From Eledone cirrhosa (taxonomy: Eukaryota): a DNA stretch of 64,000 nucleotides. The notes beneath the pieces are model-generated. The model did no database searches and was not told the origin of the DNA. It was given only the letters and a program-made list of their open reading frames with translations. Both the position numbers and the translations under genes were made by a program. The stretch lies in assembly GCA_964016885.1 (NCBI GenBank), contig OZ024744.1:83328001-83392000 (forward strand), read 5' to 3'. How positions within the stretch are numbered: the stretch's first letter is position 1; each line of letters begins with the position of its first letter. Below, in pieces: positions 10,590-33,940 of this stretch.

Positions 10590-10800
10590 TATTTATTAAA
10601 ATAACAGATTAAAGTTTAAGCAAAGAATCGCTGCTTTGACCCTTAACGGGATCTTCTGAAACGTTAAGGGTGAAAGCAGCGATTCTTTGCTTAAACTTTA
10701 ATCTGTTATTTTAATAAATACGGTTCTTATATATTTGATATATATTTATCATTATCGAGCGCTCTTTGGATTTTATTCTTCAAATTTATTATTATTACTA
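10590..10800 (+). mobile_element. Fold-back repeat family P2 (hammerhead-derived palindrome plus tail)
   Basis: Palindrome about 10590-10720; homologous to 19866-20092 and 33894-33940; (TA)n flanks. Confidence 0.85.
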
Positions 10801-13800
10801 TATATATATATATATATATATATATATATGTATATATATATATATATATATATATATACACATACATATATGTGTGCATACACGTATTGTATACAAACAC
10901 ACACACACACATTCACACAGACAGACACACAGACACACACACACACACACACACACACACACACACACACACACACATATATATATATGTATATATATAT
11001 ATATATACATATATATATACATACGTATATATGTGGAGGTACGTGCGTGTATGCATAAATACTTATGTTCAATTCTAACTACTAATCAGCCGATGAATCG
11101 TTCCAGTAGAGAATAAAGTGCTACAAATGGTAAGAGAGCCATTATGACGAACTTTTACCGTCATATCAAATTATATTCTGTATCCTTATGGGAATGTATT
11201 TACATGAAATAATTGTATCGATTATGTCCCCTGTTCATTATTATAATAAATAACCGAAGACACTAAGACTTCGATGTCTGGCGAAACGTAGTCCTACGAA
11301 TTAAAACATATAATAATCTATTGTTGAATCATAAACGCCTATAAGTTGTACCTTCAGAGCATTTTAGTATATCACATACATTCATGTACATTCATGTTAA
11401 CTAAACATATGATATAAATGTATATCATCATAATATATCGACTACATGTATGAAATCTTAGTACAAGATATACATGCACAGAAACATGCATACAAACACA
11501 CCAACACACATATATACACACACACACACACACACCAACACGCATACACACAGAAACATGCATACAAACACACCAACACACATATACACACACACACACA
11601 CACACCACCACGCATACACACACACATACACACACACATATATATATATATCTGCATATATCCATGAAACAATTATTTAGTAGAAGTGATTGCGGAAGCC
11701 ATGATCGTTACAGGTATTCCTTATACTGCTGATCATACAAGGATGTTGGTGCAAGTTCTGAACCATTTTAGGCTGCTGTCAATAAGGAAAACTAAAACAG
11801 AGACGGTGTAAGTTCCACGGATTTATCCTCCAGGGGATGAATAACTGGGATTAGTAGTTAATTCGGGGTTTGTGGATAGCGAATCTTAAGTAATGACGAA
11901 ATAAGGCGACAAGTTGGTATGTCTGACTTGTTCTCTTATGTTGACATATACAAGACTGCACGTATCAAGTAAAGAGATGGGTGGACAAGCAGATAAATAG
12001 CCACTATAATGGATATAACAGTGAGGATAATTATAGAACTAGAGAGGTATGCTAGGAAACGCGATAGTGTTTGTATAAAGCAAGCCCACATGCATATATA
12101 TGCATATATATATATATGTATGTATGTATGAATGTAAGTATGTATGTATGTATGACCGTACTTACATATGTATATTTATGTGTTGAAGTGTGAATGGACG
12201 GAAGCAGAGAGAGACAGAAGTGGGAGAGAGAGAGAGAGAGGTGGGAGAGAGAGCGACAGAGAGAGAGAGAGAGAGAGAGAGAGAGAGAAAGTGAAGAAAG
12301 CAGTGCATCAACGATTGTTCGAAGGATAATTTGGAAAATGGTTGGATTACTAGATGGATGGACAAATGGTTGAATGACTAGATGGAAGTGCAGGTGTACG
12401 TGTAAATAAATCTGTGGTTACATGAGAAAACTGAAATAGGTCGTGTCTAGTTTATTTCTACTTACTGCATAAGTAGGAAGAGGAAATAAAAACATAATAT
12501 ATAAACGTACAGAATGAAAATCTAAACAAAATATAATAGCAATAACAGCATTAAAAACAACACATATGACATCAACAGCCTCAAGAAAAATCAACAACAA
12601 ATAGACCACATGAACTACCAATATAATACCGAGAAAAGACTAAGAAATTCAACGAATAGAAAAGCGTTATATCTATCGAAGAAGCTAGAGTAAAGGAAAG
12701 TAATCTTTCCTGGTTGTTGAGAAGTTGAGATTAACATAAATGTTCATAAACGTCGTAGATCCTCTTGGAATAGTTCAGGCAGAAACATATTCGCTGTAGA
12801 TTTTATTTACAACTTACGTTCTGAATACACATTACAGGATTTCGGTTGCTTTGTTATTTCGTTGTTTGTGCTATTCTAACAAACGAATTGCGTAGGCTTT
12901 CAATCAAGAAATGGACATTGTATAAAGATAGATCGAATTAGATGAAAGCAGGTTTAGCGAGAATATTTCTATAAAATTACTCATGCATCTCCAATAGTGT
13001 ACGCACCAACGGTTTTGGTTACGGCGAGAAATTAAAGTTTCTTTCAGTGCTTCTGGTAAAGACATAATACATGACCAAACTGCAAAACATGCACGCATAT
13101 ACATTTACACAGACAGAAACATAGACAAATACAAACACACCCACGCACACACTCATACACACACACACACACATAGACATACACACACACAGACACGCAC
13201 CCACACCTAAACACACTCGCATTTCACGCATACACATGTATATATAATCTAACATTTCTTACAATAGACGATCAAAGTGAAACTCCACGCACACTAACGC
13301 ACATTAATATTATCTGTATGTTTGTGTGTGGGTTTGTTTGTGTGTTTGCGTGTGTGTGTGAGAGAGTGTGTGTGAGAGTGTGTGTGAGAGTGTGTGTGTG
13401 TGAGTGTGTGTGATTGTGTGTGTATTTCTCTGCATTTGTCTAAGTTTGATCTAAATATATATATTTATGTCAGGTCACTATTAGAGATAATAGCATCATG
13501 TAATCCAGTACAACCTGTTACCTAATAGGGTTGATAGGGTTGTCGGTGTCTAAACAAGCACCACAAGGAAGCTAGATAATGCTAAAAACAGAGTGCGACA
13601 AAAATAACATCTGTCAAATGTGTAACTGATCCCAACAATAGGTCAACGACAGTAGCACTACAAAAACCGAATACAAACATACTCAAAATATCGAAGCACC
13701 ACGTTCCATGATACCTTTGTTGATGATGGTACCCCTCAAAGCAAAATACATTGATATCAGGCACATGTATTATCTAGTTTTTGTATATTATAAAATACAT

Positions 13801-14065
13801 ATATTATTCAGAATATATTGATATATGGCTATCTAGTTTTGTCGCAACATTATACAGTTCAAAATTCAAAAGTAACATCAATCGTCAACTTTATTTTCCT
13901 TAAATTATGTACACTTGGTCTTACTTGGGGTAAAATGAAAAACACATATACCATACAAACGCGCGCACACGCATATATAAGTAAAGTGTGGTTGTTATCT
14001 CTAAAATCATGTTTGGAAACAAAAATTCATCTTATTTGAATGAAGGTATCTGTATACAAATGTAA

Positions 14066-14445
14066 GCATATATATATATATATATATATATATATATATA
14101 TATATGTATATATATATATATATATACAGAGAGAGAGAGAGTGAGAAATACATACTTATATACATATATGTATATGTACATACACACACATATATATGTA
14201 CACACACACATACATATATATGTATGTATATATATATATATATATATATATATATATATATATATATATATATATATATATATATATATATGTGTGTGTG
14301 TACATATATATGTGTGTGTATGTACATATACATATATGTATATAAGTATGTATTTCTCACTCTCTCTCTCTCTGTATATATATATATATATATATATATA
14401 TATATATATATATATATATATATATATATATATATATATATATGC
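14066..14445. repeat. Large palindrome with a (TA)n centre
   Basis: cagagagagagagagtgagaaatacatacttatatac... (from 14127) is mirrored by ...gtatataagtatgtatttctcactctctctctctctg (to 14374); outer gcata/tatgc also mirrored. Confidence 0.9.
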
Positions 14446-15639
14446 ATTTATATATCTCCCTCTCTTCACTTCTATCTCAATGCACACAAAGATATATAAA
14501 GATATATATATGAGTGCGTGTGTGTGTGTGTGTGTGTAAGTATGTATATAAATATACATATATGTCTGTAGGTGTGCGTGTATGTGTTTCCTTATATATA
14601 TATATATATATATATATATATATATATATATATATGTATATATATATATATATATGTATATATATATATATATATATATATATATATATATATATATATA
14701 TATATATATATATATATATATATATATATATATATATGTATATATATATATATATATATATATATATATATGTAATGTATACATATAAAAATGCACCAGG
14801 CAGACTATCTTACCCACCAAACAATCTATTGTAGAAGGTTAGTAAATAGCTGGTTCTGTCTCCATTTCTTTTTTCTTTTAACTCTGCCTTTCTTACAATT
14901 TCTATTGTGTTTTATTCTTTTTTCATCAAGTCTTTTATTCGTCAATTCTTTCGATTTTTTTTTGTTCTCCTTGTACCACTTCTTTTCTTTTCTTTTCTTT
15001 TTTTTTATTTTCTTTCTTCATACCCATTTCGACATTCCAACAACCATTCCTTTCATTCAGCAAAAATGGTATATTATGAAACAAAAAGCAAATGAAAAGA
15101 AAACAGTAAAATAAAACCAATATTCATAAAAACGAAAGAAAGAAAGAAAAAAAACAAAAACCAAAATACAAATAAAAAATTTGAAAACAACAACAATAAA
15201 TAAATATAACAATAAAAAGTAAAGAAAAGCCAAAGAAAGGTACTTTAATTACACACCAGTGTTTCTTGCAAGAAAACTAATTAGAATAGTGTAAGGATTT
15301 CACCCAAAAGTTTTGTAACACGACGAAGTTAGACGCCATATTAATTAAGTGTACACTCACTGGTGTGTCTCCTATGGAACAGTCACTATTGAAATTCTTG
15401 TGAGCATTAATAGAAACAAAAAGAACAATAACCAAAAAAAAAAATAGACACTTACATACAGGTACACAAGAATACTCACACACTCGCATGTATCTATCTA
15501 TCTATCTATATATGTATATAGACACGTATGTACGTGTATATATATATATATAAATAAGTATATATATATATATATATATATATATATATATATATATATA
15601 TTTATATATATATATATATATATAAATTATATATATATA

Positions 15640-32563: not shown

Positions 32564-32628
32564 TTTTGTTTATAGGTTCTGATGATTCCTACCCTAGGGT
32601 ATGGATGAAACACTGTTAGCAAATAAAA
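32564..32628 (+). ncRNA. Minimal type I hammerhead ribozyme
   Basis: ttttgttt atag gtt-CTGATGA-ttcctaccc ta gggtatggat-GAAA-cactg-TT-agc aaataaaa; stem I interrupted by a bulge. Confidence 0.75.
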
Positions 32629-33635
32629 CAATGTTTAAAGCACTCTTTGGTTATTCCTAAACTTATAACGGCTCTGTAGTATACTAGTTATCCTACATTG
32701 AACTAAAACCACACTGTCATACCAAGGACAATATATCTGTATGTCTGTGTACGTTAGTATAATTGTCAACGAAACTATATATATATATATATATATATAT
32801 ATATGTAGAATGGAAAACGAAAAATCAGTGATGCATCGGAACTTAATTTATTGTGTGTTACAATTATTTCCCCCGCAAACAGCTCGAAGTGCGATATGTG
32901 TTTGGATCTACCTGACTCTAGACTCGCAGGTTCCTCGGACACGTCTATTGATTTCGGATCATATCCTCTTTCTGGGGTTTTCCGGCTCTACAAGCCTATA
33001 TCGTCCACCTTCATCCGCTTTGCCTGTCCTTGGGTTGGTCACTGGTTAGTTACGTGATCATTATTCTGACCACTTGTAGCAGCCCGCTGACCGTCAGGGC
33101 ATGAGCTGTCACTCACCTACTGCCCCGTCGGCAAAATTACTGCTGTTTCTCAGCTCACACTCCCACTCGCACACACACACACACACAGAGGCACACGCGC
33201 GTGTATATATACGCACGCATATACACAGACACACACACATACACGCACCCGTATATATATATACATGCACACACACACACACACACACACACGTGCGCAT
33301 CCGTAATTATACATACACATACACTCGCACACACACACATGCACATCTGCACATACATATGCATACATACACATATACACATACATATATATATACACAC
33401 ACACCCACCCACACGCCCACACACACGCATACATACATACATACGTCTACACACATATACACACACGTACACACACACACACATATATATATATGTATAT
33501 ATATATATATATGTATATATATATATATACACACATACCCCAATACATTTTTTTCCCTGAACGTGTGCATACACACACACACAGACTCGCACATATATTC
33601 TTACACATATGTGTATATATATATGTATATATATA

Positions 33636-33822
33636 TAGGAAAAAGTATGACCCCGTAGGCAGAGCTCAAGCCGTTTCGACAGCGTCCAGAAATAGCAGTC
33701 GAAACGGCTTGAGCTCTGCCGTCGGGGTCATACTTTTTCTTATTTCCCACTCTACTACCCTAAGTATTGAGTACTCTGGTGCGTTATGGTCCATCTGGTT
33801 CCTTACCACATTTCCTTCGTTA
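33636..33822 (+). mobile_element. Fold-back repeat family P1
   Basis: Palindrome with an asymmetric junction at about 33683 (gacagc|gtccagaaatagcagtc), then the P1 tail. Confidence 0.85.
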
Positions 33823-33893
33823 TATATATATATATATATATATATATATATATATATATATATATATATATATATATATATATATATATATAT

Positions 33894-33940
33894 AAAACTA
33901 ACAGATTAAAGTTTAAGCAAAGAATCGCTGCTTTCACCCT
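33894..33940 (-). mobile_element. Family P2 fragment ending inside hammerhead stem II
   Basis: taacagattaaagtttaagcaaagaatcgctgctttcaccct, then unrelated sequence. Confidence 0.8.

Follow-up and report, generated by a model that had tools for sequence, protein, structure and literature searches.

Organization of the P2 repeats

The window analysed here is a stretch of 64,000 nucleotides (nt) of Eledone cirrhosa DNA (contig OZ024744.1, positions 83,328,001 to 83,392,000, forward strand), to which all coordinates below refer. It contains a short repeat family, P2, associated with a hammerhead ribozyme and present at three loci with five arms; loci A and B are head-to-head palindromes and locus C is a single arm. 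The window is AT-rich (GC content 0.22-0.43) with plentiful microsatellites, and no Pfam match above the curated cut-off was obtained for 150 scanned reading frames of the 153 that passed the filter. In appearance it looks like repeat-rich non-coding animal DNA. A 25-nt P2 word occurs five times in the window against 0.00 in 100 shuffles, so the repetition of P2 is not a matter of chance.

All three loci lie in (TA)n. The palindrome of locus A (10593-10798) lies between (TA)n runs at 10561-10592 and 10799-10858. Its short arm (10593-10661, minus strand) is tailless, has its 5' end 23-24 nt upstream of GAAA and carries a broken core with CAGAAGA and CAAA. The long arm (10662-10798, plus strand) begins at the stem II loop, lacks CUGAAGA and includes a tail at 10718-10798. 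The palindrome of locus B (19868-20089) is flanked by (TA)n at 19807-19867 and 20090-20119. Its long arm (19868-20028, minus strand) consists of the hammerhead, approximately 25 nt leading to a short 3' end (about 19954-19962) and a tail (19868-19953). The short arm (20029-20089, plus strand) is tailless, with a broken core (CAGAAGA, GAA and one helix II change). The two arms meet at 20028/20029, between cagaaact and cagaagatccc, and locus B has a short, templated-looking insert, which may resemble microhomology-mediated end joining. Locus C (33895-33940, minus strand) is short, lacks CUGAAGA and stops 5 nt into stem II (8 nt if one mismatch is allowed); it shares the (TA)n run at 33821-33894 with the tail of a copy of P1, a second family of the window. 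The arms are alike at 58 of 61 positions in locus B and 51 of 52 in locus A, and no direct tandem was found at the three loci. The 5' ends of all five arms fall 5-25 nt 5' of the hammerhead GAAA. An earlier note on this DNA had described a complete ribozyme in one arm of locus B with the turn just 5' of its core, a right arm of locus A starting in the stem II loop and a locus C fragment ending within stem II; on re-reading of the sequence, these statements and the junctions were found to be exact at each locus.

The hammerhead core

The only complete type I hammerhead core of P2 (19978-20028, minus strand) is in the left arm of locus B, the one arm of five in which CUGANGA, GAAA and NUH occur together with three helices. 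In 5' to 3' order it comprises the 5' strand of helix I (20024-20028), CUGAAGA (20017-20023), helix II with its loop (20004-20016), GAAA (20000-20003), helix III to the CUU triplet (19983-19999) and the 3' strand of helix I (19978-19982). Helix I has 5 bp, helix II consists of a U-U plus 3 bp with a GUUAA loop, and helix III has 4-5 bp; the predicted cut follows CUU, between 19983 and 19982. The remaining four arms are broken as given above. A quasi-palindrome, TTC-T-GAA (20019-20025, minus strand), overlaps the core and is a recurrent fold-back centre that gives the CAGAAGA variant. The descriptor for type I hammerheads found five cores in the window, compared with a mean of 0.01 (maximum 1) in 100 block shuffles. 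Downstream of the core, the P2 arm has no ATG or open frame.

The hammerhead had been called intact in the earlier note, which holds for the minimal core. At the base of helix II, however, U-U replaces the G10.1-C11.1 pair, no Rfam hammerhead matched P2 at the gathering score, and the window copy is too short to include the upstream strand needed to lengthen helix I. The 16 Rfam matches at E<=10 included no hammerhead and were hairpin look-alikes far below their gathering scores. By inspection, the upstream letters seen in one contig of sequencing run X8, and partly echoed in the consensus of run X1 (see below), could form 9 bp with 19969-19977 after a 7-nt bulge. An isolated P2 stub thus probably lacks its distal helix I, judging from these letters. 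The same layout, a distal helix I after a 7-nt bulge, occurs in family 3 inside the window, and an 18-nt upstream motif had no match in the window.

Outer ends and tail

The earlier note overlooked that the outer ends of the palindromes are unequal. In both P2 palindromes only one arm carries the tail, which is 81-86 nt long and alike in A and B at 75 of 86 positions. The tailless arm halts approximately 25 nt past the predicted cut site, and its partner is longer by the length of the tail. P2 has two distinct 3' ends, a short one near 19954-19962 and the tail end at 19868, and its arms extend through the predicted cleavage site. The tail is likewise confined to one arm in all four P1 palindromes, which also sit in simple repeats: (TA)n and, on one side of one copy, (GA)n.

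Turns and the ribozyme

When one arm is counted per insertion, eight of nine P1 and P2 arms end no more than 41 nt 5' of GAAA (P = 4e-6), as do all three for P2 alone (P = 0.004); arm lengths were entered by hand and the 41-nt zone was drawn after the data had been seen. Breakpoints of P2 copies beyond the window point the same way. The earlier note would have been contradicted by a lack of enrichment at the ribozyme, and in a partial genome-wide look all eight inverted joints listed from run X1 have one side there. The enrichment of turns at the ribozyme is real, family-dependent and not exceptionless. P1 is recognized as ribozyme-bearing by its 3' half only, CUGANGA being present in no P1 arm. 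The geometry shared by P1 and P2 had been taken to make chance less likely; the two families do not count as independent evidence, since they probably use one insertion machinery.

Several other families of the window bear on the question. The inverted pair of family 5 (21355-21895) has a complete core with a long helix II at 21453 (minus strand), with a short arm that begins 1 nt ahead of GAAA. Two further stubs turn at the 5' edge of the core: the left arm of 53196-53317 extends to 1 nt 5' of CUGAUGA, and the long arm of 52321-52444 to a site beside the look-alike UUGAUGA. Both were recognized by eye and fail the descriptor. The family 6 palindrome (27772-28431) has 283-nt arms that are 96% alike, each with a hammerhead-like motif bearing C at position 4. 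Other arms with a ribozyme in the window continue beyond it. A relaxed hammerhead scan of the window found nothing beyond the five cores, so families 6 and 7 and the copy at 52321-52444 remain hammerhead-like, as judged by eye. With the relaxed core pattern, no hammerhead core was found in the fold-backs at 2658-2739, 17984-18505 and 38369-38855.

Family 3 has type I hammerheads at 44672-44770 (plus strand) and 32270-32370 (minus strand), with a palindromic helix III region, a predicted distal helix I and a P2-like layout; at the base of helix II, one copy has U-U and the other A-U. At 44582-44770 an inverted P1 tail, ending at the short P1 3' end, stands head to head with the sense family 3 copy between simple repeats, and this arrangement may be a two-family insertion or a shared tail. 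Further hammerhead-like stubs were noted at 10232, 53453 (minus strand) and 48545-48635, besides 53196-53317 and 52321-52444; the one at 48545-48635 starts within a few nt of the predicted cut site of family 4. The inverted pair 20230-20301/20981-21052, located outside the relaxed core-pattern scan, has no recognisable hammerhead core.

P2 in sequencing runs

Four of 24 listed sequencing runs (X1, X8, X10 and X24) were mapped to the left arm of locus B (reference 19868-20030), and 14 of 201 rows of loose ends were examined. In X1, 13,474 of 16.3 million records map to the P2 arm; the family is very abundant in this run, the summed depth not being a copy number. The other runs are sparse, with three records in X8, seven in X10 and one partial read among 12.8 million in X24 (about 1% of the run was read).

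On the 3' side, 141 X1 contigs have loose ends into TA at 19954, and 18 have them at the tail end, 19869; loose ends into TA were also found in X8 and X10. The ratio of tail to core in summed X1 depth is 0.58, near that of two arms per tail. Depth is flat across the cleavage site, with 2.96 million at 19976-19981 and 3.01 million at 19982-19987. On the ribozyme side, 23 contigs break at 20025 and run on into the sense arm, folding back perfectly at TTC-T-GAA. A further 94 contigs break at 20028 with an agreement of 0.54, and are a mix of true junctions and copies that continue upstream. Two further loose-end rows of X1, at 19920 and 19955, are in or at the tail. Behind the latter, in 27 contigs the P2 tail adjoins a single long, unrelated sequence that terminates with a hairpin and CTAGT and is presumably Helitron-like.

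Nine joints were listed for X1. Eight are inverted, each with one of its sides falling at 20006-20029, within the 5' half of the ribozyme (P = 0.0003 against a uniform null). In five of the eight the other side stops at 19944-19967, near the proposed second start site of reverse transcription (P = 0.03). The CAGAAGA variant is present in the left arm of A, the right arm of B and two of the six X10 loose ends listed. The six X1 loose-end sites listed do not include a longer quasi-palindrome at 19979; microhomology is thus not sufficient to determine the joining site. The depth of X8 fits equally a step after the ribozyme, with 19% running on, and a memoryless decay of 86 nt, and does not discriminate between them.

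P2 words occur in runs whose labels name 16 coded organisms and one faeces metagenome (20 rows, 16 studies), with no RNA data set among the rows listed; one of the four mapped runs is rich. Outside these, two metagenome scans, one prokaryote genome scan and one viral scan gave no P2 match. Horizontal transfer is not claimed for P2, as either trace carry-over or a genuine presence at low copy may account for the sparse runs.

Comparison with known elements

Insertions of Penelope-like elements (PLEs) are described as having an inverted, 5'-truncated copy, a one-sided tail and a bias for (TA)n (PMC8557442; the insertion form is also treated in PMC8969392), and head-to-head copies with palindromes at the junction have been reported (PMC3846280). 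Pairs of hammerheads on opposite strands 100-700 bp apart are also described (PMC4209133). In vitro, a PLE protein nicks and extends both target strands, mainly on an uncleaved RNA template, and two start sites of the reverse transcriptase (RT) define the tail between them (PMC11167929).

As far as these accounts go, P2 resembles the endonuclease-positive PLEs (Penelope/Poseidon, Neptune, Hydra) in its head-to-head arms, variable 5' truncation, tail at one end, palindromes at the junction, (TA)n target and hammerhead near the 3' end. Four of six defining features of this group were found: the adjacent inverted 5'-truncated copy (loci A and B and the eight inverted joints of X1), the one-sided tail, the hammerhead in a terminal repeat and the (TA)n bias. 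The remaining two are a single reading frame for a telomerase-like RT and a GIY-YIG endonuclease, which stubs of this kind would lack, and a partial direct tandem with a target-site duplication, which would be illegible within (TA)n. P2 differs in that no open reading frame (ORF) or direct tandem was seen, the arms are only 60-160 nt long, the tail has 81-86 nt compared with the described 30-40 nt, and the truncation points are concentrated inside the ribozyme. No report of inverted junctions clustering in the ribozyme was found in the searches made of the open-licence literature.

The Poseidon element PAc of Anolis shares with P2 an AT-rich target, and P2 would also resemble it in two RT start sites downstream of the hammerhead, in extension on both strands and in an uncleaved RNA template. 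The PAc ORF starts in stem II (PMC11167929), whereas the P2 arm has no such frame after the core. Type I topology and conserved core letters are common to P2, the type I PLE hammerheads (PMC4209133) and HHR_Amex2 of the axolotl (PMC7229834). The latter also has a U-U mismatch at the base of helix II; cleavage by its monomer is weak, reaching 22% in 1 h, and that by its dimer is stronger (PMC7229834). Compared with these ribozymes, as they are described there, P2 has a longer helix III and a non-palindromic loop, and lacks G10.1-C11.1. With non-LTR retrozymes (LTR, long terminal repeat) (PMC7229834; bioRxiv 10.64898/2026.07.22.740005) P2 shares the non-coding nature, a type I hammerhead, high copy number and kinship to the pseudo-LTR (pLTR) of PLEs. 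Retrozymes are described as direct tandem repeats of 300-400 nt, whereas the window copies of P2 are inverted pairs or single stubs, and identity with a non-LTR retrozyme was rejected for want of a direct tandem at the three loci. Identity with a miniature inverted-repeat transposable element (MITE) or foldback DNA transposon was rejected because P2 has a one-sided tail, variable centres and solo arms.

Origin and mechanism

With a probability judged somewhat better than even, P2 represents abundant 5'-truncated 3' ends (pLTR stubs), inserted head to head in (TA)n, of a hammerhead-bearing PLE or of a non-coding derivative moved by one. According to this PLE reading, the protein of the element would nick both strands of a TA target, and uncleaved RNA would be copied into two complementary DNAs (cDNAs), primed on opposite strands of the target and begun at different ones of the two start sites, which would leave the tail on one side. 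As a rule, both cDNAs would reach no further than the 5' edge of the ribozyme or a point just inside it, probably because the copied RNA begins nearby or the RT drops off there. Their 3' ends, being of identical sense, would then be joined, often by pairing at TTC-T-GAA in the core. Because pairing between two same-sense ends requires self-complementary letters, TTC-T-GAA is a possible joining site, and a join there changes CUGA to CAGA in one arm and so explains the CAGAAGA variant. The product would be a dead stub, whose read-through transcript would form a ribozyme-blocking hairpin of 60 bp as a by-product. Cleaved RNA as the main template was rejected, because the arms extend beyond the cut site, where depth does not change stepwise. 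Stalling of the RT on entry to the ribozyme fold is unlikely, since the stops lie on the far side of GAAA; their position suggests a nearby RNA 5' end rather than such stalling. The letters upstream of P2 include a pyrimidine-rich run ending in AG at helix I, and in D. virilis the Penelope transcript is described as having its start 46 nt ahead of an intron whose end lies at helix I (PMC2377424, PMC4209133); by analogy this parallel may serve as a lead only.

A broader proposal, that the hammerhead is a stereotyped in vivo stop for Penelope-type RTs and that two opposite-strand cDNAs are joined through self-complementary core letters, disabling one ribozyme, is tentative and is given less than an even chance. 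If it is true, the many stubs in several families would constitute a natural library of breakpoints for comparing two-cDNA insertion with self-priming and for the role of the pLTR ribozyme. The way in which PLEs produce tandem and inverted insertions and the role of their hammerheads are listed as unanswered questions (PMC8557442, PMC11167929). The pile-up of P2 junctions, the step-free passage of the cut site and the two 3' ends make models of PLE insertion testable by counting junctions in one assembly.

A number of observations weigh against the PLE origin with a stop at the ribozyme. None of the 150 scanned frames matched RT or GIY-YIG families, and the P2 tail exceeds the published length. 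The clustering of inverted joints has a P of only 0.036 under a stricter null, and the junction evidence comes from the 14 rows seen. The pile of 94 contigs is the mixture noted above, and the fall in depth at 20000-20029 is partly an edge effect of a reference that ends at 20030. One X8 contig runs 260 nt upstream, the long arm of family 5 continues more than 370 nt upstream, and in family 6 approximately 190 nt separate the hammerhead-like motif from the turn upstream of it. Copies of families 3 and 4 retain some 35-70 nt of upstream sequence (close to 70 nt in family 4) and lack a fold-back of their own. Finally, symmetric junctions with spacers of 0-1 nt occur in P1 at 8748, 27448 and about 47516 and in the P2 class at 20025, and a U-turn of a single cDNA explains them as easily.

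This last point leads to the main rival of the two-cDNA model, rated as rather unlikely. It accepts the PLE origin, but the second arm would come from a single strand that folds back and primes itself, the short end being cut by the endonuclease. Self-priming has been proposed for PLEs (PMC3846280), and the tail has been ascribed to resolution by the endonuclease (PMC8557442). The symmetric junctions of P1, the fold-back at 2658-2739 and the 23-contig P2 class all suit it. Joints between a tail-only side and a ribozyme-start side, which make up five of the eight listed (near side <=19955, the extent of the partner arm lying out of view), are poorly produced in this way, and the two-family head-to-head join at 44582-44770 is not readily given either. 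These joints and the two-family join favour two cDNAs. Twin priming of L1 is a parallel to joints with one side near the second start site. It is improbable that P2 copies are full replicas of a ribozyme-centred master, as those of a non-autonomous palindromic unit or MITE would be, with centres altered by later deletion. The very high abundance (13,474 X1 contigs), short size, inverted arms and recurrent centre at 20022 are what such a unit would show, but A and B do not share a junction, nor do the four P1 palindromes, and single arms, a one-sided tail and copies continuing 260 nt upstream do not agree with it. Palindromes beside microsatellites are a known class of assembly or amplification artefact. 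For P2 this explanation has hardly any probability left and is already largely refuted, since the arms carry independent differences and fold-backs recur in runs X1 and X10.

The earlier note proposed that a transcript of such a palindrome pairs the ribozyme with its own antisense strand and is inactive. Thermodynamically this is borne out by the model: in ViennaRNA calculations without tertiary contacts or Mg, the hammerhead fold exceeds the ensemble energy by 4.2 kcal/mol for the isolated 19977-20029 RNA and by 65.3 kcal/mol for the full palindrome, so that a read-through palindrome transcript would be inactive. A reading as a designed ribozyme switch is not supported. Selection for the fold-back, whether because it holds the ribozyme in an inactive duplex or because its hairpin RNA supplies small-RNA silencing, is very improbable. 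The folding cost, the enrichment of turn sites at the ribozyme and a geometry in which the antisense arm is always transcribed first would all serve such a function, but a complete core is missing from four of five P2 arms and from every P1 arm. Even on its own the core folds poorly according to prediction (P about 1e-3), and the window retains ribozyme copies that have no fold-back. The predicted silencing is probably incidental and not a function. As a biological object, the stub is most likely ordinary transposon debris and not a regulatory switch.

Other repeats of the window

The segment 43502-43990 (minus strand) gave no Pfam or PDB match; it is presumably related to the C-terminal zinc-knuckle/endonuclease region of non-LTR retrotransposons. 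A fragment at 1663-2232 (plus strand) resembles the same region and has a sub-threshold match to zf-RVT. A dispersed repeat of approximately 200 nt, like a short interspersed nuclear element, is present in some 20 or more copies of 75-96% identity, including those at 1-119, 552-954, 16460-16653, 23718-24378 and 40580-41135.

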